A DNA stretch of 64,000 bases, taken from Candidatus Moraniibacteriota bacterium. Its GTDB lineage: Bacteria; Patescibacteriota; Minisyncoccia; Moranbacterales; DUUL01. Position numbers and translations under genes: made by a program. The DNA is taken from positions 2,428 through 66,427 of the forward strand of contig JBFHFF010000004.1 in assembly GCA_041583775.1 (NCBI GenBank), given 5' to 3'. Under the pieces are notes generated by a model, which was not told the DNA's origin, made no database searches, and saw only the letters and a list, made by a program, of their open reading frames with translations. How positions within the stretch are numbered: the stretch's first letter is position 1; the number at the start of each line of letters is the position of its first letter. This document shows positions 7,593-35,079 of this stretch, in pieces.

Positions 7593-7621
7593 TTGACAAT
7601 ATTTCAAATCAAAAGTAATAT
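7593..7621 (+). promoter_or_regulatory. sigma70-like promoter (TTGACA-17-TAATAT) upstream of the TrmB-like gene
   Basis: tttgacaatatttcaaatcaaaagtaatat, about 45 nt upstream of ATG 7664. Confidence 0.45.
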
Positions 7622-7663
7622 AAAATATATTTAGATTCAAATGAAATTAAATAGAAAAAATAA

Positions 7664-8413: not shown

Positions 8414-8680
8414 GGGTTTGTTGTTATTTCTGCCTCCTGCTAAATATATAAATACAAATTAACATCTAAGCTAGAAAATTTTCTTTGAAATGTATGAGAT
8501 TATATCAAATTGCTATATTTTAAATTTTCGGACCGTTATGTTTTGATGTGCTTAATCCGCAACTAATTATTATTACATTTCAATCTTCAGATTGTTGAAT
8601 ATAATAATAATTCGTTGACAGAACAATATATTAATTTTCAATGTTCAATTTACAATTTAAAGACAAACCTCGATACTGCT

Positions 8681-8706
8681 GTCATTCCCGCGAATGCAGG
8701 AATGAC
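8681..8706. repeat. palindromic element copy A (gtcattcc-cgcgaatgc-aggaatgac), intergenic, about 210 nt upstream of glmS
   Basis: 8-bp perfect arms. Shares CCCGCGAATGC...CAGGAATGACAAA with copy B and the GTCATTCC/GGAAT arms with copy C. Confidence 0.7.
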
Positions 8707-8917
8707 AAATAGGACATATAAATTCAAAATTAGAGACCAAGTCACTGTGTCATTTCTTGGAGAGGGTAAAAATAAAACATTATTATATTAAAAAATTTAT
8801 TCGAAATCCAAAATTAAAAATTCGAAATTACCTTGTTCTTAAAACTCGTTAATTCGTTAACTCGTTAATAAATAATAAATAATTCGCGTTACTAATATAA
8901 ACATTAAAACCAAAACT

Positions 8918-19031: not shown

Positions 19032-21920
19032 ATGAAAAAGACACTTTTGTGGATATTGATTTTTTTTGTGTTGTTTGCCCCTTTGCAATTTAGAAATTTT
19101 ACGCTTGTTAGTTCTAGTGCCGAAGACAATGAGTCTCTACCAACACCTTCCTCACCAGAATTTATGCGTGTGATTGATGAGGATGAAACTTGGACAAAAG
19201 ATGGCGGAGTGGAAATTACAAACGGAGTAATCATCGAAAACGGAGCGACTCTCACAATTGAGCCTGGAACAAAGGTCAGTTTTAAAAAAGAAGAAGGCGG
19301 ACAGGCACCATTTATATGGATAATGGATGGGAAGATAGATGCAAATGGAACCGTGGAAGAAGGAATCAATTTTACTTCTGAGCAGGATTTGAGTGGATTC
19401 TTTTTGATTTTTGATGATAGAGGAGGGCATGAGTCTTTTTTTAGATATGTCACCATAGAAAAAGGTGGTGGAAAAATTGAAACAGAGGAAATTGAAGATC
19501 CTGTAATAATGAGTTCTGTCCAAGAAATACAGAAAGGGAGAAGTTCTATTTTCAACATTGCAGTTGCTGAGGAGTTGCCAGAGAATCCTTCTGTGTTTTT
19601 AGCAGAACGCTATCCATCAGTGATTACCTATCTGAAAGGAAGGGTTCACTTTGAAAACTCAAAGTTTATCAAAAACAACGATGCAGTTTTCTATGTAGAT
19701 CACTATTTTGAAGAGAATGAGGAAACAGAAGTTCAACTGGAAATTGTAAATTCAAATTTCAATGAAAATGAAAAGGAACTTGCCGTGCTTTCAAATTTCA
19801 ATGGTGGAGAGAATATCAACCCTGAGGAGTGTGCAAGTAAACTATTGTTGAAAAACAATTGGTACGGAAAAATGTTAGGAGCTCAGGCGATATACCAATA
19901 TCCAGAGGATTACTTGGAAAAAGATGACTTATTCAGCGATTCATTTGCAGGAGAGAAAATAGTTGGTATGTTTTTCAAACAGGAAATGTTTCGCTCCAAT
20001 GAACTGATTGCTGATCCAGTCGTGATTGTCCCGGGGATCACTTGTTCTGGCAGAGTCCCAGAAGTGGGAGACTGGAAATTGGACCCAGTTTTGCACACCT
20101 ATGACGATTTGGTCGATTCATTGAAAAGAAATGGCTTTGTGGAGAATATCAATCTTTTCTACTTTCCATATCAATGGAGAGACAGCAATGTTGAAACTGC
20201 TAAATTGCTGAAAGAAAAAGTCTCTGAAGTTAAAGAAAAAACAAAAGTTTCAAAAGTTGATTTGGTGGCTCATTCGATGGGCGGACTGGTCGCAAGACAG
20301 TTCATTCAATTTGAAGACAAGGATAATTCAATTGATCAACTAATAACGCTTGGAACGCCACACAGAGGTTCACCGGAGGCATATTTGAAGTGGGAAGGTG
20401 GAACAGATGGGTTCCTGGGTTTCGATGATAGCATCGCTAAAAATATTTTTAGAGCAGAAGCTTTTCATGAACTCTATGGTTTTGATCTACATAGATATAT
20501 CCAAGAAAGAGTTCCTTCGGTGGGAGAACTTTTGCCAGACTATGATTATCTATTTGATGTGAAAACGGATAGTATGAGAGAGTATCCTGAAAATTATCCT
20601 CGCAATGAATTTTTGGAAAATTTGAACAAAGAAGAAAATATCAAAAATTTGGAGAAAGTAGATTTTGTTAATATCATGGGAGAGGTTGATCTAGAAGCAT
20701 CTACACTTTCAAAAATAAAAATAGAAAATAGCTCAAAAGAGGACAAATGGGAGCATGGTATGCCAGAAGACTTTTATGATGGTGATTCTAAGAATGGATT
20801 AGTGAATGAAAAGGGCGATGAAACAGTTCCAATTTTTAGCGCAAAAAGTGCTCCCGTAAATAAAATAATAGAAATTAATTCTAAGCACAATCAACTTCCA
20901 ACAAAAGCACAATGTGAGGTTTTTAAGGAACTAACACAGGAAAATAATTGTTCATATGACGAAGATGCTGTGATTACCAATGTTTTGACTTTTGGAGTTT
21001 TTTCTCCAATTGATGTGCAAGTTGTTGCTCCAGATGGAAAAAGAATTGGGAAAAACTTTGAAACAGGCGAGATTTTCAATGAAATTGAGAAAGCCTTCTA
21101 TTCCGGATTTGAGACTGAAAATGAATTTGTCACCATCCCAAACCCAATGGACGGGGAATACAGGATTTTGACTCAAGGCGTGGGGAACGGAGAATATCGA
21201 ATTGAAGTTGCAAAGATTCAAGAAGAGGAAGGAGAGGCTAAGGAATCAATGATTGCCTTTGAAGGAGTTTCACGGATTGGACAAGAAGAAGAGAAAACAT
21301 TTAAAATTTCAGAAAATGAAATCGTTGGCGGGGAGGAAAAAGATGAACTGCCTCCGACAATTGAAATTTCTAGCCCAGAAGAAGGAGAATCATATACAAA
21401 TAATGTTGATCTAGAGATTAGCGTGAATGTTGAAGATGACAGCACCGCTCAAGAGAAAATTGAGATTCAGATGAGGCTAGATGAAGAGCTTTTTGAAGGA
21501 AATGAATTGGAATTGCCATTGATGCCTCTTGGCGAACACAGTTTCGAGGTGCAGACGATGGATGAAGCTGGAAACAAAGCAACAAAAGAAATAAACTTTT
21601 CCACGAAAACAGACATAGATGCATTAATTTCAAATGTGAGTTATTATTATGATAAAGGTTTGATTAAAAATAAAAGAGAAGAAAAAGTTCTCACTTCTAT
21701 GCTTTTGAGCATCAAGAGTCTGATGCTACATAGAGACCATTTTTTAATATATAAGAAATTTTATCGGAGGGATGGTAGGATGGAAGAAATGTTTGAGAGA
21801 ATGATTAACTGGAGAATAGATTCTGTGGTTAGATTTATTGAGAGAAGGGGTGAGCGTTTTATTGATGACTCCGCCAAGAGTCTGCTGATCGGTAGTCTGC
21901 AGTATTTGAAAATAAATTAA
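19032..21920 (+). CDS. large secreted alpha/beta-hydrolase (lipase/esterase, LCAT/PGAP1-like) multidomain protein
   Basis: Signal peptide MKKTLLWILIFFVLFAPLQF. Nucleophile elbow VAHSMGGLV within a lipase-like segment. Long C-terminal extension (962 aa). Confidence 0.6.
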   Translation: MKKTLLWILIFFVLFAPLQFRNFTLVSSSAEDNESLPTPSSPEFMRVIDEDETWTKDGGVEITNGVIIENGATLTIEPGTKVSFKKEEGGQAPFIWIMDGKIDANGTVEEGINFTSEQDLSGFFLIFDDRGGHESFFRYVTIEKGGGKIETEEIEDPVIMSSVQEIQKGRSSIFNIAVAEELPENPSVFLAERYPSVITYLKGRVHFENSKFIKNNDAVFYVDHYFEENEETEVQLEIVNSNFNENEKELAVLSNFNGGENINPEECASKLLLKNNWYGKMLGAQAIYQYPEDYLEKDDLFSDSFAGEKIVGMFFKQEMFRSNELIADPVVIVPGITCSGRVPEVGDWKLDPVLHTYDDLVDSLKRNGFVENINLFYFPYQWRDSNVETAKLLKEKVSEVKEKTKVSKVDLVAHSMGGLVARQFIQFEDKDNSIDQLITLGTPHRGSPEAYLKWEGGTDGFLGFDDSIAKNIFRAEAFHELYGFDLHRYIQERVPSVGELLPDYDYLFDVKTDSMREYPENYPRNEFLENLNKEENIKNLEKVDFVNIMGEVDLEASTLSKIKIENSSKEDKWEHGMPEDFYDGDSKNGLVNEKGDETVPIFSAKSAPVNKIIEINSKHNQLPTKAQCEVFKELTQENNCSYDEDAVITNVLTFGVFSPIDVQVVAPDGKRIGKNFETGEIFNEIEKAFYSGFETENEFVTIPNPMDGEYRILTQGVGNGEYRIEVAKIQEEEGEAKESMIAFEGVSRIGQEEEKTFKISENEIVGGEEKDELPPTIEISSPEEGESYTNNVDLEISVNVEDDSTAQEKIEIQMRLDEELFEGNELELPLMPLGEHSFEVQTMDEAGNKATKEINFSTKTDIDALISNVSYYYDKGLIKNKREEKVLTSMLLSIKSLMLHRDHFLIYKKFYRRDGRMEEMFERMINWRIDSVVRFIERRGERFIDDSAKSLLIGSLQYLKIN

Positions 21921-22240: not shown

Positions 22241-22525
22241 CAGAAAAGTCACTGGAGTGGGGAATTGGAATCTTTTAATCAACACTGTACTGGTCCAAGT
22301 TTGCCTGCCCGTACTGGTCCTTCAGGCGGGTAACTCGGACCTTTTTTTAAATTCAACAAGAATAAGCACATAAAAAGTGAACTGGGTCACAGACCCGCTC
22401 CAGCACAAATGACTAGTATAATCAGAAACAATTTTTAGTCATTACATGTGTAATGACATATGTAAGTAAATAAAATTTAAAAACATTGTTTATGTGTTTT
22501 GAAACATATAAACGGTGACAACAGG

Positions 22526-23050
22526 ATGGAAATTAGAACAGCTAATTTAGAGGATATTGAGCAGTATACAGATTTATTGCAACAAACCTATCAGCATGCC
22601 TATATAAAAGAAAGTATTGGGTTGACCGCAGATTGTTTTTCTAGGGAAATTTTTAATAGTGACGACACCCAAAAATATTTAAAAACTAGTTTGGTTGATA
22701 CGGCTAATCAAAAAACTTGGTTGGCTTTTGACGGCAACAAACTGATTGGTTCGGTAACTTGTGCTTTGGAGAATAGTCAAAAAGCTGAATTAAAAGGTTT
22801 TTATGTTCGAAAAGAATACCAAGGGCAAGGGATTGGCAAAAAGCTTTATGACTTAGCGTTAGAATTTGCTGAAAATCGGGATTTATTTTTGGATATTTAC
22901 ACTCACAATACAAAAACAATCGAGCTCTATGAAAAGTGGGGTTGGAAATTGGATTCGTCTCGGGGAGAGAAAGGCTATTTTGTACGACATTGGCCAGAGT
23001 GGCCGAAGGGGTTGGATGCAAAATGCATGTATATGAAATTAGAAAGATAA
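22526..23050 (+). CDS. GNAT-family N-acetyltransferase
   Basis: Acetyl-CoA binding motif VRKEYQGQGIGKKLYDLALEFAE (Q/RxxGxG/A). Start chosen at MEIRTANL. The ORF-track start 22499 is in-frame upstream. Confidence 0.7.
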   Translation: MEIRTANLEDIEQYTDLLQQTYQHAYIKESIGLTADCFSREIFNSDDTQKYLKTSLVDTANQKTWLAFDGNKLIGSVTCALENSQKAELKGFYVRKEYQGQGIGKKLYDLALEFAENRDLFLDIYTHNTKTIELYEKWGWKLDSSRGEKGYFVRHWPEWPKGLDAKCMYMKLER

Positions 23051-23071
23051 TTTTATAACTTATTTTAAAAA

Positions 23072-23242
23072 ATGAGAAAATTAGAAGATCAAAATGTTCG
23101 TAAATTAACCAAAGTTGGCAAACAGTCCATCGCTGTGACAATTCCGATTGAGATTGTTCGGGAGCTCAAATGGAGGGAGAAACAGAAGGTGGTTGTGACA
23201 AGAGTTAGGGGAGGTGTTATGATTAAGGACTGGAAAAAGTGA
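23072..23242 (+). CDS. small AbrB/MazE/SpoVT-type swapped-hairpin domain protein (56 aa)
   Basis: VRKLTKVGKQSIAVTIPIEIVRELKWREKQKVVV has the typical AbrB/MazE pattern. Not in the ORF track because it is under 60 aa. Confidence 0.5.
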   Translation: MRKLEDQNVRKLTKVGKQSIAVTIPIEIVRELKWREKQKVVVTRVRGGVMIKDWKK

Positions 23243-23421
23243 AAATATTTAAAAATCTTCTCAAAACATAAAATATCAAAAAGGTAGATGTCAGAGAAAT
23301 AATTGGCTGATTTTTGTGAGTTTAAAAGAGAAAAATTTGTTACAATCTTAAATGTAATGCCAATTTTTCTAGAATAAAAGGACTAAAATCGTATGACATA
23401 TAATACAGTAGGGTTGTGGTA

Positions 23422-23450
23422 TTGACAATAAAATCATAGGTTATATAATA
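23422..23450 (+). promoter_or_regulatory. sigma70-like promoter (TTGACA-15/17-TATAAT/ATAATA) ending 5 nt before the hsdS' ATG
   Basis: ttgacaataaaatcataggttatataata then tattt ATG. Predicts a near-leaderless transcript. Confidence 0.4.
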
Positions 23451-23455
23451 TATTT

Positions 23456-24022
23456 ATGAATAATAAAAGATTATATAAATTAACTAATATCGCAGAAATC
23501 TTTTCGGGATATTCCTTTAGGGGGGCTGTGCGTGAAGACAAAAATAGCCAAGTTTTTTTGATTCAAGCTAAGGACACAAGGAATTATTTGTCTGTAACGG
23601 AGGAAGATTTGAAGAAAATTACTGAAGAAAATTGTGGGGATAGATTTATAAAAAATGGCGATGTGGTGATAAGTGCGCGTGGATTTTTTTCAGCCACTGT
23701 TATTAATTCAAAAGAAAAAATAATCGGATCTTCCTCAGTTTATATTATAAAACCAGAGCAAAAAAAAATATTGTCTAAATACCTAGCAATTTATTTGAAT
23801 TCAAGAGTGGGACAAGCAGAAATAAAAAAATATGAAATTGGCTCAAGTATAAAAACAATTTTGATCGGTGATTTAAGAAATATTCAAATTGAAATTCCGA
23901 ATTTGAAAAAACAGCAAAAGATTGTTGAGTTATATGAAAATATTCAGAGGCAAAATGAACTCTTAGAAAAGAAAAAAGAAATTAATAAAAATATAATGGA
24001 AGCAATATTTATAAATAAATAA
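23456..24022 (+). CDS. hsdS: Type I R-M specificity subunit, half-size (single target-recognition domain)
   Basis: 188 aa. C-terminal conserved HsdS central/terminal motif IEIPNLKKQQKIVELYENIQ (cf. IPLPPLEEQKRIV). Confidence 0.6.
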   Translation: MNNKRLYKLTNIAEIFSGYSFRGAVREDKNSQVFLIQAKDTRNYLSVTEEDLKKITEENCGDRFIKNGDVVISARGFFSATVINSKEKIIGSSSVYIIKPEQKKILSKYLAIYLNSRVGQAEIKKYEIGSSIKTILIGDLRNIQIEIPNLKKQQKIVELYENIQRQNELLEKKKEINKNIMEAIFINK

Positions 24023-24026
24023 AATT

Positions 24027-25541
24027 ATGATACCAAAAAAATATACACAAGAAGATTTGAATAATACTCTTTGGGCAGCAGCTGATTCATCTAGAAGTAG
24101 TGTGGATGGGGGAATTTACAAGGATTATGCTTTGGCAATGTTATTTTTTAAATACATCAGTGATAAATCAAAAAAACAATTAGAAGAATACACAAAAAGA
24201 TTTGGCAAAGATAAGGAAAGAATTGCACAAAAAATGAAAAATGACCGTTTCTATTTGCCACCAAAAGCTACTTTTGATTATATTTATAGCGCTATCGAGA
24301 GCGATAAGATTGGTGAAGAAATCAATATAGCCTTACATGCTATTGAAGATAATAACAAGGAAAAATTAGGTGGTGTTTTTAGTGCGATTGATTTTAATTC
24401 TGAAGCTACACTGGGAAAGTTAGAACAACGCAACAAAATGATTCGTCATTTGATTAATGATTTTGCCAAAATAGATTTTAGTGATGTCAAAGAGGATGTG
24501 ATTGGCGATGCCTATATGTATATGATTGAACGCTTTGGAGCGGATGCTGGAAAGAAAGCAGGGGAATTTTTTACTAGACGATCAGTTGCATCTTTGGTGG
24601 CAAGATTAGCTAATCCAAAACCGGGAGACAGAATTTGCGATCCAGCGATGGGAAGCGCAGGTCTTTTGTTATTGGCTGGAGAAGAAGTGGAAAAAAAGGG
24701 TTCAAAAAATTATGCTCTATATGGGCAAGAGTCAACAGGAAGCACTTATCAATTGGCTAGGATGAATGTCTATTTGCATGGCAAAGATCATGCTCGCTTG
24801 GAATGGGGTGACACTTTGAATCAACCAGCACTAACAGAAAATGATAAATTGATGAAGTTCGATGTCTGTGTTGCTAATCCACCCTTTTCTCTGAAGAAGT
24901 GGGGGGCAGAAAGTGCTGAAAGCGATAAATACAAAAGATTTTGGCGTGGAACTCCTCCAAAAGACAAAGGAGATTTTGCTTTTATTACTCATATGGTGGA
25001 GACAGCTAAACCTAAAAAAGGTAGGGTATCGGTTATCGTCCCTCACGGTGTGCTTTTTCGTGGAGGAGCAGAAGGAAAAATTCGTGAGCAATTCATTCAA
25101 GAAAATATAATTGACGCGGTGATCGGACTGCCAGCCAATCTTTTTTCCACTACGGGTATTCCAGTGGCAATTTTAGTAATTGATAGATCAAGAGAAGTTG
25201 GCGGAACAAATGAAAACAAAAAAGACATTCTTTTTATTGAAGCTTCCAAGGAATTCCGTTCCGGAAAAGCGCAAAATCATTTAGACGAGGTGCATATTGA
25301 AAAAATTCTAGATACATATGACAAAAGAAAAGATGTGAAAAAATTTGCACATGTGGCAGATTTTAAGGAGATTGAGGAGAATGATTTTAATCTCAATATC
25401 ACTCGTTATGTGGATACTTTTGTTGAGGAAGAGCCGATTGATATCAAAGCTAATTTGAAAGAGCTGGAGAAACTTAACCCGGAGATTGAGAAATTGGAGA
25501 AAGAAATGGGGAAATATTTAAGAGAGTTAAACATTAAGTAG
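24027..25541 (+). CDS. hsdM: Type I R-M N6-adenine DNA methyltransferase subunit
   Basis: HsdM N-terminal domain. SAM motif I DPAMGSAGLL. Catalytic NPPF (ANPPFSLKKW). Confidence 0.9.
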   Translation: MIPKKYTQEDLNNTLWAAADSSRSSVDGGIYKDYALAMLFFKYISDKSKKQLEEYTKRFGKDKERIAQKMKNDRFYLPPKATFDYIYSAIESDKIGEEINIALHAIEDNNKEKLGGVFSAIDFNSEATLGKLEQRNKMIRHLINDFAKIDFSDVKEDVIGDAYMYMIERFGADAGKKAGEFFTRRSVASLVARLANPKPGDRICDPAMGSAGLLLLAGEEVEKKGSKNYALYGQESTGSTYQLARMNVYLHGKDHARLEWGDTLNQPALTENDKLMKFDVCVANPPFSLKKWGAESAESDKYKRFWRGTPPKDKGDFAFITHMVETAKPKKGRVSVIVPHGVLFRGGAEGKIREQFIQENIIDAVIGLPANLFSTTGIPVAILVIDRSREVGGTNENKKDILFIEASKEFRSGKAQNHLDEVHIEKILDTYDKRKDVKKFAHVADFKEIEENDFNLNITRYVDTFVEEEPIDIKANLKELEKLNPEIEKLEKEMGKYLRELNIK

Positions 25542-25547
25542 AGATAT

Positions 25548-25790
25548 ATGAGAAATAAAACATTAAAAACAACAAAAGAGACTTCAACTGGTCTAAATAA
25601 AAAAAGTATTGATTTGAAAAATCTTTCTGAAAAGGAAAATAAAGAGCTTATTAAAAAAGCTGATGCTGGAAATCTTCCTGGATATCATACTGTTAAAGCT
25701 GATGGTAAGAAAAAATTCTTAAGATCAAATCCTGATCGAAAGAAGAGTAACAATCTTGATCCTAAAATATCAAAAAAGGGTAAAAAATAA
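25548..25790 (+). CDS. small Lys-rich hypothetical protein embedded in the R-M operon
   Basis: 80 aa, very basic, 6 nt after hsdM. Confidence 0.4.
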   Translation: MRNKTLKTTKETSTGLNKKSIDLKNLSEKENKELIKKADAGNLPGYHTVKADGKKKFLRSNPDRKKSNNLDPKISKKGKK

Positions 25791-25804
25791 ATTAAAGGAT
25801 AACT

Positions 25805-26794
25805 ATGGCAAAAGCCCGATATAAAAATTTAGTAGATAAATCTGTACAGGCAGCAGTTTCTGCTATTGAGATTTACAATAAGCCAGATTTTAAATATCGG
25901 GAAGAGACTTTTGCTATCCTTATGATTAATGCCTGGGAGTTGTTGTTTAAAGCAAAAATCCTTTTAGATAATGATGGTAGGTTAAAAAGTATATATATTC
26001 CAGATAGGACTGAGAATTCAAAAGGAGAAAAATTAAAACGTTTTTATCCTAAAAAAAATCGCTCAGGAAATCCTCTAACTCTTGATATATTCTCATCAAT
26101 AAAACTTCTTAAGATAGATAATACTCTAAGTAAGAATATAGGTTTAATGGTTGAAATTAGGGACAATGCTATTCATTTTGTGAATGATTCAAAAGAATTT
26201 GAGAAAATAGTTCTTGAGATAGGAACAGCGACACTAAGAAGTTTTGTAACTTTGGTAAATGAATGGTTTGATTGTGATTTGGCAAATTATAATTTTTATT
26301 TAATGCCTATATCATTTTTTCATACTTTTGAAATGGAGAGCTTTTCTGTTAACAAAAAGAGTAAACAAAAAGAAAATTTTTTTGCTTTTATTTCAAATGA
26401 ATTAAATGAAAACTCTGCTGATTTAAATAAAAAACATAACATCGCATTGAGACTAGAGACAAGATTTGAAAAATCTAAATCAGTTGATGCACTGGCAGTG
26501 AGATATTCAAAAGATTCGCCAATTGTAGTAAGGCAAGAAATGGAAAATCGTATTCATGAAGGATTAAAAAACAAAAGTTTGTTTTCTCATGAAGACTTCG
26601 TTTCAAAATTAAGAGAAAAGATTCCAAATTTTAAAATAGACAAAGATTTTAATAAGCAGAAAAATGAAATGAAGAAAGATTCAAAATATTGTCTGACAGC
26701 GTATTTAAATCCCTTGGAAAAAAGCGGAACAAAAAGGCACTACTGGACAACGGAAGCAATGAAAAAAATTAAAATTCTATATGACAAAAAATAA
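25805..26794 (+). CDS. hypothetical protein embedded between hsdM and hsdS (possibly DUF3644-like)
   Basis: N-terminus AIEIYNKPDFKYREETFAILMINAWELLFKAKIL resembles what I recall of DUF3644. Its stop overlaps the hsdS start by 14 nt. Family call is low-confidence memory. Confidence 0.45.
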   Translation: MAKARYKNLVDKSVQAAVSAIEIYNKPDFKYREETFAILMINAWELLFKAKILLDNDGRLKSIYIPDRTENSKGEKLKRFYPKKNRSGNPLTLDIFSSIKLLKIDNTLSKNIGLMVEIRDNAIHFVNDSKEFEKIVLEIGTATLRSFVTLVNEWFDCDLANYNFYLMPISFFHTFEMESFSVNKKSKQKENFFAFISNELNENSADLNKKHNIALRLETRFEKSKSVDALAVRYSKDSPIVVRQEMENRIHEGLKNKSLFSHEDFVSKLREKIPNFKIDKDFNKQKNEMKKDSKYCLTAYLNPLEKSGTKRHYWTTEAMKKIKILYDKK

Positions 26795-28034
26795 ATCACA
26801 AAAAAATATACCTGATGGGTGGCAAGAAATAAAGCTCGGAGAGATATCCAGTGTGTTTGATGGTACTCATCAAACACCAAATTATACAAAAAGTGGAATC
26901 CCATTTTACAGCGTAGAGCATTTGACAGCAAATGACTTTACGGATACGAAATATGTTTCAGAGGAAGTTTTTGAGCGAGAATCCAAGAGGGTTAAAATTG
27001 AGAAAGGTGACATTTTGATGACAAGAATAGGCGATGTAGGAACAGCTAGACATATAAATTGGGATGTGAAAGCATCTTTTTATGTATCACTTGCCTTAAT
27101 TAAATGCAAAAAAGATGTGAACGCAAAATTTTTAACTTTTTTTATAAACTCAGCATATTTTCAACGAGAAGTATGGGGCAAAACTATCCATGTTGCCTTT
27201 CCAAACAAGATAAACTTAGGAGATATAAGCAAATGCGTGTCCATTCTCCCTCCTCTCCCCGAACAAAAACGCATTGTTGCGTTGCTGGAGGTTTGGGATG
27301 AGGTGGTTGAGAAATTGGGGAGGAAAATTGAGGTTAAGAAAAATATCAAAAAAGGTTTGATGCAGGAGCTTTTGAGTGGTAAAAAAAGATTGAGTGGGTT
27401 TAAAGAAGGGTGGCGAGATATAAAAATTTCCAAATTAGGAAAAAATTATTCTGGTATTACTGGAAAAAATAAAGATGATTTTGGTTCAGGAAAACCTTTT
27501 ATTTCATATATGAACATTTATTCCAATTCTAAATTGGATACTGATTTTAAAAGTTTTGTTGATATAAAAAATGGTGAAAAACAAAATGCTGCTAAATACG
27601 GTGATTTATTTTTTACAACATCATCAGAAACTCCCCATGAAGTTGGAATTAGCTCAGTATTATTGGATAAAAATGTAGGAGAATTATATTTAAACAGTTT
27701 TTGTTTTGGTTTTAGGTTGAATAATTTTAAAATATTAATTCCGGAATTTTCTCAATTTTATTTCAGAGGACAATATTTCAGGAAGCAAATGACGAGAATT
27801 GCACAAGGTGCAAGTAGGTTCAATTTATCTAAAAAATACTTTTTGGAAACAAAAATAAATATTCCGAAAGATATTAAAGAACAAAAAGCAATTGCAGATA
27901 TCTTAGTGACGGCTGATTGGGAAATTGAGAAATTGGAAGAAAAATTAAGAATCATTAAGGATCAAAAAAAATATCTTCTAAACAATCTCATCACCGGCGC
28001 AATCCGCACGCCCGAGAACTTATTAATTAATTAA
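26781..28034 (+). CDS. hsdS: Type I R-M specificity subunit, full two-TRD form
   Basis: Central conserved LPPLPEQKRIVALLE and C-terminal IPKDIKEQKAIADIL...LITGAIRTPE repeats typical of HsdS. Confidence 0.85.
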   Translation: MTKNKSQKNIPDGWQEIKLGEISSVFDGTHQTPNYTKSGIPFYSVEHLTANDFTDTKYVSEEVFERESKRVKIEKGDILMTRIGDVGTARHINWDVKASFYVSLALIKCKKDVNAKFLTFFINSAYFQREVWGKTIHVAFPNKINLGDISKCVSILPPLPEQKRIVALLEVWDEVVEKLGRKIEVKKNIKKGLMQELLSGKKRLSGFKEGWRDIKISKLGKNYSGITGKNKDDFGSGKPFISYMNIYSNSKLDTDFKSFVDIKNGEKQNAAKYGDLFFTTSSETPHEVGISSVLLDKNVGELYLNSFCFGFRLNNFKILIPEFSQFYFRGQYFRKQMTRIAQGASRFNLSKKYFLETKINIPKDIKEQKAIADILVTADWEIEKLEEKLRIIKDQKKYLLNNLITGAIRTPENLLIN

Positions 28035-28043
28035 AGTAATCCA

Positions 28044-28271
28044 ATGGAAAATTACAGAGACTGGGATAATGATTCAGGAATTGAAGCTTATGAAATTGAA
28101 AACGATGCCATAATTATTCAATTTAAAAATGGAAGAAATAAATTTTATAAATATACAAATTTTTCTTGTGGCTCAGATAATATTGCTATAATGAAACAAC
28201 TTGCTTGTGAAGGAGAGGGACTTAACGAATTTATTGTTGAAAATAAAATTGAGTACGAATCTAAATGGTAA
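28044..28271 (+). CDS. KTSC-domain small protein
   Basis: IEAYEIENDAIIIQFKNGRNKFYKYTNFSCGSDNIAIMKQLACEGEGLNEFI fits the KTSC pattern (S.i..v.Y......L.v.F..G..Y.Y..v......l..A.S.G.y.n..I). Confidence 0.5.
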   Translation: MENYRDWDNDSGIEAYEIENDAIIIQFKNGRNKFYKYTNFSCGSDNIAIMKQLACEGEGLNEFIVENKIEYESKW

Positions 28272-28287
28272 TTTTTTGAATACTATT

Positions 28288-29136
28288 ATGAAAAAGAGAC
28301 CAACAGAAAACAATATCCGCCCAACAATTTTTGAACAAAAAGAAGTGCGTCGAGTGTGGCACAATGAACAATGGTTTTTTGTTATAAATGATATTGTAAG
28401 TGCGCTCACGCAAACATCAAATGTTTCTGATTATATTAAAAAAATGAGATTGCGAGATATTGAGCTTGGAAAAGGGTGGGGACAGATTGTCACCCCCCTT
28501 TCTGTGAAGACCAAGGGTGGCTTGCAGAAATTAAATTGTGGTGATTTGAAGGGAATTTTTCGTATTATTCAATCAATTCCATCTCCCAAGGCTGAACCGT
28601 TTAAACAATGGTTGGCGAGAGTGGGACAAGAAAGAATTGAGGAGATTCAAGATCCTGAAAGGGCAATTGTGCGAGCCAAAAAAATCTATGAACAAAAGGG
28701 TTACAAAGATGACTGGATTGCTAAAAGAATGCGAGGGATTAATGTGCGGAATACTTTGACGGACGAATGGAAAGAAAGAGGTGCAAGAGGTGGCTTTGAT
28801 TTTGCTATTTTGACTAACGAAATTTATCGAGGTGCATTTGAAATGGATGCCAAGCAGATTAAGGAATTTAAATCATTAGACAATCCAGATAACCCAAGAG
28901 ATCATATGTCAGAACTTGAGCTTATTTTAACAATGCTTGGAGAGGCGACGACCACAGAAATTACTACTACTAAAAATTCAAAAGGTTTATCGGAATTATC
29001 TCAAGATGCAAAAGAAGGTGGACAAGTGGCGGGTAGAACCAGGAAAGATATTGAGAAGCAAACAGGCAAAAAAATAATTTTAGAAAATAATTTTAAAAAC
29101 CAGAAACTTTTAAGAAGTAAATTTAAGAAAAAATAA
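28288..29136 (+). CDS. Bro-N / DinD-like (DNA-damage-inducible protein D family) protein
   Basis: N-terminus IRPTIFEQKEVRRVWHNEQWFFVINDIVSAL is Bro-N-like. C-terminal FDFAILTNEIYRGAFEMDAKQIKEFK...HMSELELILTMLGEATTTEI aligns with E. coli DinD DFAIFQNHGYQGLYGGL...ILDHMGSTELAANLFRATQTEE. Start chosen at MKKRPTEN. Confidence 0.55.
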   Translation: MKKRPTENNIRPTIFEQKEVRRVWHNEQWFFVINDIVSALTQTSNVSDYIKKMRLRDIELGKGWGQIVTPLSVKTKGGLQKLNCGDLKGIFRIIQSIPSPKAEPFKQWLARVGQERIEEIQDPERAIVRAKKIYEQKGYKDDWIAKRMRGINVRNTLTDEWKERGARGGFDFAILTNEIYRGAFEMDAKQIKEFKSLDNPDNPRDHMSELELILTMLGEATTTEITTTKNSKGLSELSQDAKEGGQVAGRTRKDIEKQTGKKIILENNFKNQKLLRSKFKKK

Positions 29137-29137
29137 T

Positions 29138-32100
29138 ATGAGCATATTAAACATAGATTTCGACGAAGCCAGACAATCACAACTACCCTTTGTGGAATTG
29201 CTTTTAAATTTGGGCTACAAATACATATCTCGAGAGGAGCTGCTGCAAGAACGAAAAGGAGACACAGGAAAATTTATCTTGCGAAAAACTGCCAGTGAGG
29301 TCTTGATGAAAATCAATAGCTATGAGTATGCTGGAAAGGAATATAAATTTAGCGAAGAAAAAGTTTTTGAAGCTATTGATGAATTGGAAAACATTCCCTA
29401 TGAAGGTTTAGTAGATACTTCAGCCAAAATTTATCAAACTATCATGCCAACTAGCGGAGGGAAAACCATTCAAGTTTTTCATGATGGCAAAAAAATGAGT
29501 CAAAATTTTCGTTTTATTGATTTTGAAAATGTAGAAAATAATGTTTTTCAAGTGGCGGTGGAATTCGAGGCTACAGGGAAAGAAAACATTCGTCCAGACA
29601 TCGTGGTTTTTATAAACGGCATTCCCTTGGCCATAATCGAAAATAAAAAAGCTAGCGTTGATGTCCAAGAAGCTTTGAGACAAATGATCCGTAATCAAAG
29701 AGCAGAATATTGTCCAAGACTCTTCATATATCCGCAATTATTAGTTGCTACAAACGGCAAAGATTTGCGTTATGGCACCACAGCTACCCCGACAGAATTC
29801 TATGCTAAGTGGCGAGAGAAAGATGGAGAAAAAGAATTAGAAGAAAAAGTAGAAAATCTAATTTCTACAAAAATTGAAAAGGACCTTTATAAAAAAGTTT
29901 GTCTAGACCTCAATGGAGCAACTAAAAATCATTTACAAAAAATCAATCGTGATGTAACTGAGCAAGATCGGGGTGTGGTGGCAATTTTTGATAAACATAG
30001 AATTTTAGATTTAGCAAAGAACTTTATTCTTTATGATGCAGGTATAAAAAAAGTAATGCGCTACCAGCAATATTTTGCTATTAAGAGAATTTTAGAGAGA
30101 ATAGAACATAGAGTTCCTGGCAAAGATGGAGACAAAAGAGAAGGAGGTATTTTATGGCATACTCAAGGAAGTGGAAAGTCATTAACAATGGTAATGTTTA
30201 TCAAGGCCTTGATTGAAAGTCCCGAAATTATAAATCCTCGAGTATTGATTGTGACTGATAGAAAAGATTTGGATAGGCAAATTAAAGGAACTTTTGAAAA
30301 TGCAGGATTGAAAAAAGAAGTGGTGCAGGCTAAAAGTGGAGAGGATCTTTTGAATCTTATTGAGAAAAAAGATTTAAGCGTGGTGACAACTCTTATTCAG
30401 AAATTTCAATCGGCCAGTAGAAAGAATGTTGGTTTTGAAGATTTGGATGATAATATTTTTGTATTGATTGATGAAGCCCATCGGTCACAGGGAGGAGAAG
30501 CAAACATTGAAATGAATCGTATCATTCCCAATGCTTGCTATATTGCTTTCACTGGCACGCCTCTTCTTAAGAAAGAAAAGTCGAAAAATAAATTTGGTAG
30601 TTTTATCGATAAATATACTATTGATGATGCTCTGACTGATGAGATTATTTTGCCCTTGATCTACGAAGGACGCTATGTGGATCTTCATCAAGACAAAAAA
30701 GAAGTTGATAGACAATGGGACAGAGTGACTGATGGTTTGCCAGATGCTCATAAATATCAATTGCAACAAGATATTGAAAAGAAAATTATTGCCAATAACC
30801 CAAGTCGTATTGCAGAGATTTCTTATGACATTGAAAAACATTACATAACTAGATTCAAAGATACAGGACTAAAAGCACAAATTGTAGCACCATCAAAATA
30901 TTCAGCTGTACTTTTTGAAAAATATTTCAAAGAGAGCGGAAAAGTTCAAACTGCCTTGGTAATTTCTGATGAAAATGGTCTTATCGACATGAAAGATAGC
31001 CATAAAAGAGACGTGGATGAATATTTGAAAGATATAAAAGAGAAATATCAGAGCTTAAAGAAATATGAAGAAAGTGTTATTGATAGTTTTAAATACAACG
31101 AGGACGGTGTGGAAATTTTGATCGTGGTAGACAAATTATTAACCGGTTTTGATGCTCCACGGAACACTGTTTTGTATTTAGCCAAGGAACTCAGAGATCA
31201 CAATTTATTACAAGCCATTGCTAGAGTAAATCGGCTATTTGATAATCGAAACTTGCCAAAAACCGCTGGGTATATTATTGATTATTCAGAGAATGCTCAG
31301 AATATTAGAACCGCAATGCAACTTTTTGGAAATTATGATGGGGATGATGTGGCTGGTGCGCTTATTGATGTGAGGGAAAAAATTAATGAGTTGGATGATC
31401 ACTATGGAAAACTGCACGATATATTTAGAGGAGTCAAGGATGATGATGAAGCATATTTGAAATATTTGGAAGATGAGCAGATAAGAAAAGAATTTTATGA
31501 CGGGATAAGAAAATTTTTAACTACCTTTAATGAATGTATGAATTTACGGGATTTTGTTCATGAGTTTGAAAATATTGATATTTATCGTAAAGAGTTGAAA
31601 AAATTCATGGAGCTGCGTAAAATCGCAAGCGTTCGTTACGCGGAGAGAGTTGATTTTGCAAAATACAAACAAGCGCTGACAAAAATCATGGATGAAAATA
31701 TCCGAGCAGAAGAGGTAGAGTTTTTGACGAGAGAAATTACTATTACTGATAAGGATGCTTTTGAAAAAGTTATTGAAGAGCTAGGGTCTGATAAATCAAA
31801 AGCTGATGCAATCACCGCTCAAACGAAAAAGATTATTTCAGAAAATGCAGTGAAAGATCCAGAATTTTATAATAGATTCTCTAAGCAAATCAATGATTTA
31901 ATCGAAGAGATGCGGTTAGGAAAAATTGCTGATATTGAAGCTTTGAAAGAAGCGCGTAAAATTAATGAGGAGGTTAATGATAAAAAGGACGAAACTGTTC
32001 CATTGGAGTTAAGCGACAAAGCTGGTGCAGATATAATTTTTCGAAATATTAAAAAGGAATTCGATGATTTGAATGTGACAGAGGATCAATATGTAGAAAT

Positions 32101-32317
32101 CATTTCCAATTTACACGGAGTGATTTGTGATAATGCTGTTGTGGACTGGTGGAAAAATAGTGAACATAAAAGAAGAATGAAAGAAGTTATCGATGATTAT
32201 CTTTATGATGAAGTTAAAATAAAGATGGACATTGAGCTTACTAATGAAAAGATAGAGGAAATGATTGATATCGTTATGGATTTAGTTCAAAATAATCACG
32301 AGATCTTTAGCTTATGA
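29138..32317 (+). CDS. hsdR: Type I restriction enzyme R subunit (nuclease plus SF2 helicase)
   Basis: N-terminal PD-(D/E)xK PDIVVFINGIPLAIIENKK. Helicase motif I GSGKS. Motif II VLIDEAHRSQ. 1059 aa. Confidence 0.9.
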   Translation: MSILNIDFDEARQSQLPFVELLLNLGYKYISREELLQERKGDTGKFILRKTASEVLMKINSYEYAGKEYKFSEEKVFEAIDELENIPYEGLVDTSAKIYQTIMPTSGGKTIQVFHDGKKMSQNFRFIDFENVENNVFQVAVEFEATGKENIRPDIVVFINGIPLAIIENKKASVDVQEALRQMIRNQRAEYCPRLFIYPQLLVATNGKDLRYGTTATPTEFYAKWREKDGEKELEEKVENLISTKIEKDLYKKVCLDLNGATKNHLQKINRDVTEQDRGVVAIFDKHRILDLAKNFILYDAGIKKVMRYQQYFAIKRILERIEHRVPGKDGDKREGGILWHTQGSGKSLTMVMFIKALIESPEIINPRVLIVTDRKDLDRQIKGTFENAGLKKEVVQAKSGEDLLNLIEKKDLSVVTTLIQKFQSASRKNVGFEDLDDNIFVLIDEAHRSQGGEANIEMNRIIPNACYIAFTGTPLLKKEKSKNKFGSFIDKYTIDDALTDEIILPLIYEGRYVDLHQDKKEVDRQWDRVTDGLPDAHKYQLQQDIEKKIIANNPSRIAEISYDIEKHYITRFKDTGLKAQIVAPSKYSAVLFEKYFKESGKVQTALVISDENGLIDMKDSHKRDVDEYLKDIKEKYQSLKKYEESVIDSFKYNEDGVEILIVVDKLLTGFDAPRNTVLYLAKELRDHNLLQAIARVNRLFDNRNLPKTAGYIIDYSENAQNIRTAMQLFGNYDGDDVAGALIDVREKINELDDHYGKLHDIFRGVKDDDEAYLKYLEDEQIRKEFYDGIRKFLTTFNECMNLRDFVHEFENIDIYRKELKKFMELRKIASVRYAERVDFAKYKQALTKIMDENIRAEEVEFLTREITITDKDAFEKVIEELGSDKSKADAITAQTKKIISENAVKDPEFYNRFSKQINDLIEEMRLGKIADIEALKEARKINEEVNDKKDETVPLELSDKAGADIIFRNIKKEFDDLNVTEDQYVEIISNLHGVICDNAVVDWWKNSEHKRRMKEVIDDYLYDEVKIKMDIELTNEKIEEMIDIVMDLVQNNHEIFSL

Positions 32318-33018
32318 AAAAAATAAAATTTATTTATGGAAAATATAGTTATGAATATATTTTAATTCTAGAGAAAAGAAAGTCTTTAAGTTTGGCAATA
32401 TATCCAGATATGAAAATTGTTTTAAAATCTCCCGACAACCTTAATGCAGATGCTATTGAAAAATTTCTTAAAAAAAAGTGGTTATGGATGGAAAAGCAAC
32501 TACAATTTTTTTCTCAATTTCAAGGGAAAAAAGTTAAAAAAAGTTATGTTTCAGGTGAGAGTTTTTTGTATTTAGGTCGTCAATATAAATTGATTGTGGA
32601 GAAATCTGATCAGGATTCTATGTTACTGCAAAAAGGAAGGTTAGTACTCAGTACAACAGGAGAATTAAGAGATGGTAACAAAAATAAAAAATTAATTAAG
32701 AAGTGGTATAATGATAGAATAGAAGTTATATTTAAAGAAAGATTTGAGGAAGTAAGAAGAAATTTTGACTATGATTTTGAGTTTAAGTTGACTATCAGAA
32801 AAATGAATAAACGATGGGGGAGTTATGCTAGAAATAACACTATATCATTAAATCCACTATTAATTAATGCTTCTAAAAAATGTATTGATTATGTAATAAC
32901 TCACGAATTATGCCATGCAGAAAATAAGAAGCATGACAATAAATTTTTTCAATTATTATCTCGTAAATTTCCAAATTGGCAGAAAGTAAAGGAGGAGCTA
33001 GAGTTGAGGTTTACTTAA
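32314..33018 (+). CDS. YgjP-like DUF45 (SprT/WLM-related) metallopeptidase-fold protein
   Basis: HExxH (ITHELCHAENKKH). ATGA overlap with the hsdR stop. Confidence 0.7.
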   Translation: MKKIKFIYGKYSYEYILILEKRKSLSLAIYPDMKIVLKSPDNLNADAIEKFLKKKWLWMEKQLQFFSQFQGKKVKKSYVSGESFLYLGRQYKLIVEKSDQDSMLLQKGRLVLSTTGELRDGNKNKKLIKKWYNDRIEVIFKERFEEVRRNFDYDFEFKLTIRKMNKRWGSYARNNTISLNPLLINASKKCIDYVITHELCHAENKKHDNKFFQLLSRKFPNWQKVKEELELRFT

Positions 33019-33139
33019 ATTTATGTAATTGATTACTTACATAAATTTAAAAAAATGACAGTACGCAAAAGTGACTCGAAGATTATTATTGAGGACTGGA
33101 AGAAATAGAAAAAGAAATAATGCGACATAATGCTAGCCT

Positions 33140-33186
33140 GGATTCCTGCCGATGTTCACCCCGCGAATGCCGGGGCAGGAATGACA
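33140..33186. repeat. palindromic element copy B (nested hairpin), 27 nt upstream of the DUF2779 gene
   Basis: ggattcctgcc gatgttca ccccgcgaatgccgggg caggaatgac: outer arms attcctgcc/ggcaggaat, inner ccccg/cgggg. Confidence 0.7.
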
Positions 33187-33213
33187 AAAGACTAGAAGAA
33201 ATAACAAAACAAA

Positions 33214-34683
33214 ATGCCCCATCTCTCAAAAACAGACTTTAAAGAGTATCTAATTTGCCCAAAGTGTCTTTGGTTGAAGAGGAAGAGACCCAATGACTAT
33301 GTTCAAGGGGAATTTTCTGCGTTCCTAAAAAAGCTGATAAAGGATGGATATGAAGTTGAGGAATATTTCAAACAATTCTTTCCTTTGGGGGTGACCGTTT
33401 GGAGCAGGAAGGAAAAAGCGGTGGAGGAGACAAAGGAACTGATTGAGCAGAAAAAGACAATCTTCCAAGCCACAATCGAAACGGAAGATGGAACTTTTGC
33501 GAAGATTGATGTTTTGGAATTCAACGAGAAAGAAAACAACTGGAGTCTCTATGAAGTGAAATCTGGCTCAAGCATCAAGAACGACTTGTTTCACAACCAC
33601 ATCAAAGACATTGCGTTTCAGAAGATAGCACTTGAAAAATCAGGACTTGAAATTGGGAAAAGCTTCTTGGTGCACTTGAACAAGGAGTATCGAAGAGCCG
33701 GAGAGATTGAACTTGAAAAACTCTTCATCTTCAATGAAGTTTCAGCGAAGATTGATGAAATTCAAAAAGAAACAGAGCAAGAAATCTCACAGGCACTGGA
33801 GCTTTTGAAAAAAGATGACATTGATCTTAGCGGTTGCGAGTGTCTCTATCAAAGTAGTGGGCAAAGATGTGATTGTTTCAAATTCTTCAATCCCCAGGTT
33901 CCCGCCTATTCAACGGGACATATTTTTAAAAAAAAGAAATTGCGAGCCTTGATCGAGGATGGAATCTTTGATCCAATCGATGTTCCTGATGATTTAAAAA
34001 TGACTGATGCGCAAGCAACCAAAGTTGAATTGCAAAAGAGTGGGATTCCACAAATAGACAAGGTCGCTGTTGACGCAACGCTGTCAGAATTGGTCTATCC
34101 TTTGTATTTCTTCGATTATGAAACATTTGGAAAGCCTGTGCCTCTTTTGGACGGATACAAGACCAGTCAGCAGTTGGTGTTTCAATATTCCTTGCATGTT
34201 TTGCACAAAAACGGAAAACTTGAGCATTTTGAATATCTAGCAGACAAGTTGGAAGGTGCAACAAAAGGCTTGGTGGAATCCATGAAAGCGAACATTGGTC
34301 CAGTCGGAAGCATTTTGGTTTGGTATGAATCTTTTGAGAAAAGCAGAAACTGCGAACTGATGGAACTGCACCCCGAGGCAAAGGAGTTTTTGGAGGATAT
34401 GAACGAGAGAATTTTTGATTTGATGAAGGTTTTCAAGAAAGATTATCTGCATCCAGAATTCAACGGAAGCGCCTCAATCAAAAAAGTGTTGCCTGTTTTG
34501 GTGCCAGAACTTTCATATGCAGAGCTGGATGTGCAAAATGGAACAATGGCAATCGAAGCCTGGGGCAGAACAATCTTTGAGAAAGTTGATAAAAAGGAAA
34601 TCGAAGAGATCAGAAGAAATCTCCTGAAATATTGCGAGCTGGATACATTGGCAATGGTTAAGATATTGGAAAAAATAAGTTAG
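33214..34683 (+). CDS. DUF2779-family protein: Cas4/RecB-like PD-(D/E)xK nuclease with 4-Cys cluster fused to RNase-H-like (DnaQ-like) domain
   Basis: N-terminus LSKTDFKEYLICPKCLWL. Cys cluster CECLYQSSGQRCDC. C-terminal FFDYETF and ELDTLAMVKI exonuclease-like motifs. Confidence 0.6.
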   Translation: MPHLSKTDFKEYLICPKCLWLKRKRPNDYVQGEFSAFLKKLIKDGYEVEEYFKQFFPLGVTVWSRKEKAVEETKELIEQKKTIFQATIETEDGTFAKIDVLEFNEKENNWSLYEVKSGSSIKNDLFHNHIKDIAFQKIALEKSGLEIGKSFLVHLNKEYRRAGEIELEKLFIFNEVSAKIDEIQKETEQEISQALELLKKDDIDLSGCECLYQSSGQRCDCFKFFNPQVPAYSTGHIFKKKKLRALIEDGIFDPIDVPDDLKMTDAQATKVELQKSGIPQIDKVAVDATLSELVYPLYFFDYETFGKPVPLLDGYKTSQQLVFQYSLHVLHKNGKLEHFEYLADKLEGATKGLVESMKANIGPVGSILVWYESFEKSRNCELMELHPEAKEFLEDMNERIFDLMKVFKKDYLHPEFNGSASIKKVLPVLVPELSYAELDVQNGTMAIEAWGRTIFEKVDKKEIEEIRRNLLKYCELDTLAMVKILEKIS

Positions 34684-34728
34684 AAAAAAGAAGCTTGTTA
34701 ATTTATTGTCGAAGATTAAGAATAACAA

Positions 34729-34881
34729 ATGAAAAAGAAATATATTTTTTTTATTTATACCATAAGCATCCTAACTGTTATTTTCATTGCTATTTCAATC
34801 TGGATTTTATCTACTTGGGCGATTCAATCAGGAAGACAAAACGCGGGAAGGGATGTAAAAATTCATGGCGGAATTCAATAA
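34729..34881 (+). CDS. candidate small membrane peptide (50 aa), or remnant sharing the N-terminus with the thermonuclease at 42597
   Basis: MKKKYIFFIYTISILTVIFIAISIWILS vs MKKQYIFFTALTSLLLGIFVSVTIWIFA. Not in the ORF track. Confidence 0.3.
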   Translation: MKKKYIFFIYTISILTVIFIAISIWILSTWAIQSGRQNAGRDVKIHGGIQ

Positions 34882-35079
34882 GCTAACATTTCACTTTCCA
34901 TCTAATCTAAATCAAAAATATAATGTATTTCAAAAATAAATCTTCAAACAATTATAGAATTAGCTTGAGTTTCCCCGGTTTAATCTCTAGATAAAGGTAA
35001 AAGACATTGAGTCATATTCTGATTTCTAGCGGTCTTGGTGTGCTTGTGATAAGATATTAAGAAATAAAAAATATAACCC

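Follow-up and report, generated by a model that had tools for sequence, protein, structure and literature searches.

Gene content and transcription of the operon

The stretch of DNA analyzed here (hereafter the window; 64,000 nucleotides (nt), G+C content of 34%) belongs to contig JBFHFF010000004.1 of a Candidatus Moraniibacteriota bacterium and harbored a Type I restriction-modification (R-M) operon in which four further genes were embedded. Nine open reading frames (ORFs), all on the + strand between positions 23456 and 33018, followed one another in the order short hsdS, hsdM, DUF3892, DUF3644, full hsdS, a 75-amino-acid (aa) ORF, Bro-N/DinD-like, hsdR and ygjP, with an intergenic spacing of -14 to +16 nt. 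This nine-gene order had been described in the original prediction, drawn up from the sequence of the window, and all its ORFs were indeed present on the + strand at that place; an independent public contig with an identical locus carried the same gene calls. Near-identical HsdM and Bro-N proteins bore names including Moranbacteria, Parcubacteria and 'uncultured bacterium ACD'. It is fairly probable that this one operon encodes a complete Type I enzyme of a distinct and widespread lineage, built on a fixed scaffold with swappable cargo in two slots.

A sigma-70-type promoter (TTGACA-16-TATAAT, 23422..23449, + strand), read directly from the sequence, matched the consensus at 12/12 positions and was the sole 12/12 match within 22400-35200. 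Since its -10 box ended 6 nt 5' of the first ATG and left no space for a Shine-Dalgarno sequence, the operon mRNA of 9.6 kb is probably leaderless or nearly so. No terminator-like site was seen on the + strand before 33018. Given one perfect promoter, the lack of such a site and the tight or overlapping junctions, a single transcript for all nine genes would be the simplest reading, in agreement with the co-transcription that had been proposed.

The Type I enzyme and the YgjP protein

Domains of the window proteins were annotated by Pfam, NCBIfam and PADLOC profile searches. The first gene (23456..24022, + strand), which ended 4 nt before hsdM, encoded a short HsdS of 188 aa with one domain resembling a target recognition domain (TRD) and one C-terminal helix (Methylase_S, 2.7e-14). 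HsdM (24027..25541, + strand), the N6-methyladenine (m6A) methyltransferase subunit, displayed the HsdM_N (PF12161) and N6_Mtase (PF02384, 1.5e-97) domains, scored 278.8 bits against TIGR00497 (cut-off 242.75) and possessed the motifs DPAMGS205 and NPPF284. The full HsdS of 417 aa (26781..28034, + strand) encompassed two TRDs and two conserved helices (Methylase_S twice; Specificity_I, 1.9e-76), and its column conservation across 41 homologues was 0.18-0.30 in the TRDs and 0.57-0.72 in the two helices. HsdR (29138..32317, + strand), the translocase-nuclease subunit, combined HSDR_N, SWI2_SNF2, ResIII and T1R_D3-like domains, scored 496.6 bits against TIGR00348 (cut-off 284.55) and harbored the motifs E168-x-K, QxxxY187, GSGKS344 and DEAH445. 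With all Hsd subunits encoded and their catalytic motifs intact, the locus is predicted to specify a complete Type I R-M enzyme, which would restrict unmethylated DNA.

The last gene (32314..33018, + strand) encoded a YgjP/SprT-like zinc metallopeptidase (YgjP-like, 8.1e-49) with an intact metallopeptidase motif, HELCH197. It overlapped hsdR by 4 nt, which suggests that the two genes are translationally coupled. YgjP could be a protease whose target is the restriction complex or stalled HsdR, and this is the weakest step of the mechanism proposed here. A search for a link between YgjP/DUF45 and hsdR returned nothing in the literature that it covered. COG1451 is said to occur beside Type I genes in defence-island surveys.

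A conserved scaffold with two cargo slots

Related loci were collected by a metagenome scan with the window HsdM, which yielded 80 loci with HsdM 56-93% identical; these are the best matches to one HsdM and not an unbiased census. ORFs in these loci were called naively (longest ORF, at least 60 aa) and labeled by profiles seeded from the window proteins, which distant hsd families may escape. Dereplication at 99% HsdM identity gave 68 groups.

The order of genes was invariable: short hsdS (about 186-216 aa), hsdM, slot 1, full hsdS, slot 2, hsdR and ygjP. Short hsdS lay 5' of hsdM in all 71 loci that extended at least 700 nt upstream (60/60 assessable dereplicated groups), and ygjP followed hsdR in 39 of 41 related loci (30/31 groups dereplicated in the same way). 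With 68 HsdM-distinct groups of loci sharing the scaffold, its arrangement goes far beyond what chance would give. Slot 1 was occupied in 51 of 52 loci, by inserts of 582-6541 nt (36/37 after dereplication, in 34 distinct configurations), and slot 2 in 20 of 46 (12/30 after dereplication).

The slots of the related loci encompassed 145 cargo ORFs in 74 sequence clusters, and defence-family scans covered 58 of the cluster representatives. Cargo in relatives included Thoeris (ThsB TIR, ThsA Macro), CBASS-type cyclases with SLATT and SLOG partners (SMODS/SLATT), Shedu (SduA), Abi_2, RhuM (PADLOC PDC-S05) and Fic/Doc, as well as AAA_21, AriA-like and HEC-01A-like ATPases, DUF3800, DUF4238, KilA-N and others. 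The view that Type I loci are hot spots for embedded defence genes, put forward in the original prediction, is thus borne out, the same two slots carrying Thoeris, CBASS, Shedu, Abi_2, RhuM, Fic and AriA-like genes in relatives. The cargo families of the window itself were sparse among the 52 to 80 loci (DUF3644 in 3, DUF3892 in 5, the 75-aa ORF in 6 and Bro-N in 14). Each embedded ORF taken singly was therefore missing from most orthologous operons, part of an outcome that had been listed as one speaking against the prediction, while the slots themselves, slot 1 above all, were almost never empty.

Cargo turnover was displayed most directly by loci L113/L115 and L117. Their short HsdS, HsdM, HsdS, HsdR and YgjP proteins were 100% identical, with only scattered nucleotide differences, but slot 1 held either a 604-aa ABC-type ATPase or a RhuM-family gene with a UvrD-like helicase. 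Identity ended with the stop codon of hsdM and returned with the start codon of hsdS; because the flanks are almost identical, the actual crossovers between these loci cannot be placed. The slots are therefore hot spots of gene turnover, which is both recent and precise. Identical scaffolds that differ in slot 1, and do so from one gene boundary to the next, fit a model in which cargo would be exchanged by homologous recombination between related operons, with the conserved hsd genes serving as arms. This exchange model does not extend to the first entry of new cargo at gene-precise boundaries. Once in place, cargo would gain from co-regulation and co-transfer with the hsd genes, a benefit that has been discussed for embedded systems in general.

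The same five-gene scaffold was found on plasmids of cultured bacteria, namely Proteus sp. ZN5, Acinetobacter pittii, Methylocystis rosea and Klebsiella pneumoniae, with HsdM 49-59% identical to that of the window. Both slots were empty on the Proteus plasmid; slot 1 was empty on the Acinetobacter plasmid, with NucS and an abortive infection (Abi) gene in slot 2; and the Methylocystis plasmid carried RhuM in slot 1, and Shedu and HAD in slot 2. In the Klebsiella version, slot 2 harbored YecA together with a cold-shock-domain protein, and IS1 stood at the position of short hsdS. A SprT/ygjP gene followed hsdR on the Proteus, Acinetobacter, Klebsiella and Methylocystis plasmids alike. These operons differ from that of the window in belonging to other phyla, in being plasmid-borne and in their generic annotation, and no published study of them was found. 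On the Klebsiella plasmid (pFII-191773, locus L186), the IS1-like coding sequence spanned positions 6805-7992; if this system is active, it offers a natural way to test whether a short HsdS is needed.

A HEPN protein in slot 1

The second slot-1 gene of the window (25805..26794, + strand) encoded a 329-aa protein, first labeled DUF3644-like. The match to DUF3644 was in fact a full one (1.1e-45; 155.9 bits against a gathering threshold of 27.6, residues 8-198), and DUF3644 is classed as a HEPN domain, the EC042_2821 family having been noted in R-M operons (PMC3710099). The protein also matched PDC-S19 model PDLC04954 from end to end (1.3e-102; residues 1-328 against profile positions 1-327 of 330). 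Its RDNAIH motif at residues 119-124 conformed to Rx4H, with R119, D120 and H124 invariant in 30 homologues (46-73% identity). In an AlphaFold2 (AF2) model (predicted local distance difference test score (pLDDT) of 76), the N-terminal half was helical and the C-terminal domain followed a helix-helix-helix-strand-strand-helix order. A profile search of Protein Data Bank (PDB) sequences with the protein gave nothing meaningful.

The HEPN protein is predicted to be a ribonuclease and would act as a second-line effector, through abortive infection or growth arrest, being expressed together with the restriction enzyme and co-inherited with it. Proteins of this kind have experimental precedents: HEC-08, in which a DUF3644 HEPN domain is joined to zinc-finger-like domains, showed anti-phage activity that was lost on mutation of the motif histidine, and the Ishtar proteins of A. 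baumannii (both HEPN, one DUF4145 and the other DUF3644) clear plasmid RP4. HEC-08, Ishtar, PDC-S19 and the window protein have in common a DUF3644 HEPN domain with an Rx4-6H motif. The Ishtar proteins differ in having another, beta-rich C-terminal domain and in targeting plasmid RP4, while PDC-S19 is a candidate predicted by its authors. The genes that served to define PDC-S19 were embedded in BREX, DISARM or Type I R-M loci, and the window gene lies likewise between hsdM and hsdS.

Two results weigh against this reading of the HEPN protein. The top Foldseek matches of the model were the HEPN toxins SO_3166 and HpeT, together with winged-helix proteins, and none was significant (best E=0.59); because of this, the HEPN call rests on the Pfam match, the published classification and the motif. 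In addition, an hsd-like gene directly adjoined the DUF3644 homologue in only 26 of 80 species-genome loci, although this count is a lower bound. The family is large, with 2537 matches in a word-indexed protein search and 473 loci in one-per-species genomes, distributed among Patescibacteria, Bacteroidota, Pseudomonadota, Bacillota and one archaeon. In loci L007, L011, L022, L023 and L029 (about 6000-9980), from Bacteroidota and Limnohabitans genomes, a DUF3644 homologue stood right after a gene of ~1320 aa that matched an iterated HsdR profile; this gene may be a different helicase-nuclease partner.

The closest analogue of a HEPN gene within an hsd operon is EcoprrI-PrrC, in which the gene of a HEPN-type nuclease is nested, in the same orientation, within a Type I (IC) operon, and by analogy a back-up defence role for the embedded gene is plausible. 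The two differ in that PrrC has an N-terminal ABC-ATPase sensor and a demonstrated control by the Hsd complex and T4 Stp, whereas Pfam and PADLOC searches detected no ATPase domain in the 329-aa protein. The PrrC precedent, a HEPN-type nuclease of a Type I locus triggered by Stp, raises the alternative that the HEPN protein, and possibly the small cargo proteins, are held inactive on the Hsd complex and released by a phage anti-restriction protein. The near-constant occupancy of slot 1 in the lineage would fit such a wiring, as would the position of DUF3892 and the 75-aa ORF, which usually adjoin an hsd gene. We nevertheless regard it as unlikely: Thoeris, CBASS and Shedu, which occupy the same slot, are self-contained and respond to unrelated triggers, operons that are alike in all else have swapped cargo, and, besides the missing sensor of PrrC, most DUF3644 homologues are not beside hsd genes. 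It is quite unlikely, too, that the scaffold lineage is a dedicated carrier of defence cargo, with slot 1 filled because its cargo is wired to the restriction complex and with the small proteins, the short HsdS and YgjP acting as adaptors or regulators.

The Bro-N/DinD-like protein and the two small proteins

The larger slot-2 gene (28288..29136, + strand), between hsdS and hsdR, encoded a 282-aa protein with an N-terminal Bro-N domain (2.8e-11) and a full-length match to PDC-S13 (model PDLC04920, 1.3e-103). The DinD-like C-terminus was a weak match (3.5e-5; NCBIfam 23.3 bits against an equivalog cut-off of 242). The Bro-N/DinD-like label was retained in this form, and the start codon was moved from the TTG at 28201 to the most likely ATG at 28288, from which the gene was also called on the public contig. 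The window protein shares its Bro-N N-terminal domain and DinD-resembling C-terminus with PDC-S13 and E. coli DinD; PDC-S13 is a predicted candidate, and its family is frequent in phages and integrative elements. With a pLDDT of 45, the AF2 model could not be used, and a profile search of PDB sequences gave nothing meaningful. Among more than 8000 homologues, the best 120 were 69-94% identical and the named ones came from Patescibacteria lineages. A RadC-like JAB protein was encoded at 18203-18868 of the window, and RadC was likewise encoded close to a Bro-N homologue on a further Patescibacteria contig (L082).

The contexts of this family argue against a defence function. None of four close homologues, each looked up in its own genome, lay in an R-M locus. 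One stood by itself among unrelated genes and another near a KilA-N gene; the remaining two, each accompanied by an HTH_17 gene and a large serine recombinase, seemed to be part of small integrative elements. The protein also belonged over its full length to a phage family (phrog_15286, 8e-79), and its N-terminal domain matched anti-repressors. Because homologues occur outside R-M loci, in integrative-like elements and in phages, a defence role for the Bro-N protein is doubtful, the least secure among the four cargo genes.

The first slot-1 gene (25548..25790, + strand) encoded a basic DUF3892 protein of 80 aa (isoelectric point (pI) 10.2; DUF3892 3.8e-6, above gathering), from a family with 37 representative clusters in 1.84 billion proteins. 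In the 5 related loci that harbored it, it stood after hsdM, before hsdS, or between short hsdS and hsdM, and never adjoined DUF3644. A two-gene module of DUF3892 and DUF3644 was considered and rejected, DUF3892 being absent from 80 DUF3644 loci.

The first slot-2 gene (28044..28271, + strand) encoded an acidic 75-aa protein (pI 4.4), at best distantly KTSC-like. Its original label, KTSC, had little behind it, the window protein having no Pfam match even at E<=10 and only one of its 8 homologues in the indexed search matching KTSC (PF13619), weakly (E=0.0044). A search of PDB sequences with the family profile gave nothing meaningful. The ORF recurred in the slots of 5 other related loci, directly 3' of hsdS in 4 of them, and without Bro-N; outside the scaffold, homologues lay in arrays of small genes of uncharacterised kind. 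A module of the 75-aa ORF with Bro-N was likewise rejected: no 75-aa-type ORF was called beside the Bro-N homologues looked up, and the 75-aa homologues had no Bro-N neighbour. The 75-aa protein also corresponded to a domain embedded in large phage proteins (phrog_17428 and phrog_24656, one of them annotated as a virion structural protein), a possible sign that it originated in phages or mimics them. In loci of the scaffold family, the four cargo genes of the window occur separately; they are independent, with no conserved pair.

The original prediction had held that none of the embedded proteins has an established role in defence. This stands for the two small ORFs, which are uncharacterised and matched nothing in PADLOC. 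It needs qualifying for the other two, already PADLOC candidates (PDC-S19 and PDC-S13, both defined by the same embedding logic), the DUF3644-HEPN family in particular having shown by experiment an anti-phage (HEC-08) and an anti-plasmid (Ishtar) activity.

Some or all of the cargo might instead have no defence role and accumulate in a permissive, co-transferred locus acting as a genomic sink. This would concern chiefly the Bro-N/DinD-like protein, possibly a DNA-binding regulator of mobile-element origin, the DUF3892 protein and the 75-aa ORF. The excisionase-like character of the helix-turn-helix genes found with the serine recombinases beside Bro-N homologues agrees with this alternative, as do the other contexts of these homologues (near KilA-N or alone), the full-length relatives in phages, the anti-repressor-like domain, the small-gene arrays of the 75-aa family and the lack of PADLOC matches for the two small proteins. 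In contrast, known defence genes predominate in these slots among relatives, and Bro-N, besides matching PDC-S13 over its full length, recurs in 14 related scaffold loci, in either slot. Cargo without a defence role is less likely than not.

The short HsdS

When a hidden Markov model (HMM) of the short-HsdS family was built from 73 members, the short HsdS proteins encoded by the Proteus, Acinetobacter and Methylocystis plasmids scored 121-128 bits, versus 33-34 bits for either TRD of the window's full HsdS. The two subunits also diverged differently. In locus pairs with HsdM identities of 95-99.5%, 90-95%, 80-90%, 70-80% and 50-70%, the median identity of the short HsdS was 83%, 63%, 44%, 34% and 25%, respectively, against 39%, 38%, 32%, 30% and 24% for the full HsdS. 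The full HsdS is thus already replaced at the highest HsdM identity, while the short HsdS decays steadily with HsdM. Column conservation of the short HsdS was flat (0.34-0.60), with the lowest value in the C-terminal tail (0.24). The short HsdS is thus a family of its own and, given its flat conservation and its steady tracking of HsdM, does not behave like a swappable specificity subunit.

The one comparable system with experimental data is hsdRSMS of Staphylococcus xylosus TMW 2.1023 and 2.1324, in which an hsdS_short of 191 aa is expressed (PMC10030836). There, hsdS_short is never part of the long HsdS and does not recombine with it; when hsdSMS was expressed in E. coli, a single asymmetric motif was methylated at 0.93-0.98 of sites, whereas hsdMS without the short gene gave degraded, low-fraction motifs and a truncated long HsdS alone gave no methylation (PMC10030836). 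The layout resembles that of the window, with a single-domain S directly 5' of hsdM and a two-TRD HsdS (~390-400 aa) directly 3' in one operon, and in both the short S neither combines a variable TRD with a conserved helix nor recombines with the long S. The staphylococcal operons differ in having hsdR upstream and no ygjP and in lacking cargo slots, with an 8-nt overlap of hsdM and hsdS, and their short S is highly conserved, whereas that of the window lineage diverges quickly.

As in S. xylosus, the short HsdS of the window would be an accessory subunit for the correct assembly or specificity of the M2S methylase, and not a second specificity determinant. Two points weigh against this reading. 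The short HsdS is fast-evolving (58-91% identity at 95-99% HsdM identity), which could reflect diversifying selection on DNA recognition. The family HMM scored 50 bits on the S. xylosus hsdS_short (E 7e-17, residues 47-186), and BLASTP aligned only 38 aa of the window and staphylococcal short HsdS proteins (E 3e-4), with HsdM 37% identical. Because homology between the short HsdS proteins is so weak, we infer, rather than read from the comparison, that the function carries over.

The original prediction had seen in the short hsdS an alternative specificity, arising either from a homodimeric half-S or by recombination with the full hsdS, and neither form is favoured by the data. The first, in which a short HsdS homodimer with two HsdM would recognize a second, palindromic bipartite site beside that of the full HsdS, has precedents in active engineered single-TRD subunits (GAA N7 TTC for EcoR124I delta50 and TCA N8 TGA for EcoDXXI delta C) and in the active half-HsdS of a S. 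aureus system. The Methylase_S fold with its C-terminal helix is compatible with it, and the short HsdS evolves faster than HsdM, as a recognition protein might. The 'Type I 1/2' methyltransferases and the engineered half-HsdS also resemble the window in placing a single-TRD S beside a gamma-class M subunit; in those systems, the single-TRD S stands alone and its dimer reads a symmetric site, whereas the window lineage always adds a two-TRD HsdS. Against a second specificity, the short HsdS lacks the signature of a variable TRD with a conserved helix, its C-terminal helix being the least conserved part, and it tracks HsdM divergence without wholesale swapping. It is moreover lineage-invariant (71/71), and in S. 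xylosus, the sole S-M-S system tested, hsdSMS has one asymmetric motif, for which the short S is required, and the truncated long S alone does not methylate. A second specificity is therefore rather unlikely.

The other form, phase-variable specificity by recombination that shuffles TRDs between short and full hsdS, takes its appeal from the many Type I loci in which duplicated hsdS genes switch in this way (PMC7394358). Here, short and full hsdS occupy one and the same strand, they shared neither direct nor inverted repeats above the AT-rich background, and the two proteins were 30% identical over 122 aa. No recombinase gene was present within or beside the operon among the neighbours scanned, and the short S forms a family separate from the TRDs of the long S. 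TRD shuffling is very improbable and effectively refuted by the sequence.

Flanking genes and other features of the window

An orphan 56-aa MazE/AbrB-like (SpoVT) ORF (23072-23242; PF04014, 6.3e-7) lay 213 nt 5' of the operon without a toxin partner, and a similar ORF preceded the scaffold in one related locus only (L139). Directly 3' of ygjP, a 489-aa protein (33214-34683) combined a Cas4-like PD-(D/E)XK N-terminus with a DUF2779 and RNase-H-like C-terminus; its similarity to the NCBIfam UU173 family was weak, well below the cut-off, and a homologue lay beside the scaffold in L119. Both were rejected as parts of the system: among 84 loci scanned, the MazE/AbrB-like ORF stood beside the scaffold in 1 and the DUF2779 gene in 2, one of the latter on the contig of the window itself.

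A perfect 12-bp AT-rich hairpin (33021-33052) followed immediately on the ygjP stop codon. A GC-rich hairpin of the same intergenic region, at 33142-33182 (9-bp stem), was discarded as a feature, being single-copy and not significantly more stable than shuffled sequence (z -1.26). Scans of the window for tRNA and Rfam families found nothing, hence no signature of a tRNA-anchored island. Upstream, positions 19032-21920 encoded a 962-aa secreted LCAT/lipase-like protein with Ig-like domains. At ~49800-51200, the cumulative GC skew peaked and gene orientation switched from almost all + to all -; this region may be the replication terminus, or at least a point of replichore convergence.

Significance of the scaffold lineage

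Previous work has already described how genes are embedded in Type I loci, as well as the S-M-S layout, HEPN effectors and both PADLOC candidates, PDC-S19 and PDC-S13. What appear under-described are the cross-phylum scaffold, the near-obligate occupancy of slot 1 within the clade and the two small recurring cargo proteins. The lineage spans candidate-phyla bacteria, Bacteroidota and proteobacterial plasmids, with a short HsdS-like gene and YgjP as invariant members. A slot 1 that is nearly always full, together with otherwise identical operons differing only in their cargo, makes a clean natural system in which to ask why and how defence genes nest in R-M operons. The slots also nominate candidates, namely the DUF3892 and 75-aa proteins, absent from PADLOC, along with PDC-S19 and PDC-S13. 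All four come from organisms with very small genomes, in which retained defence genes are likely to matter.

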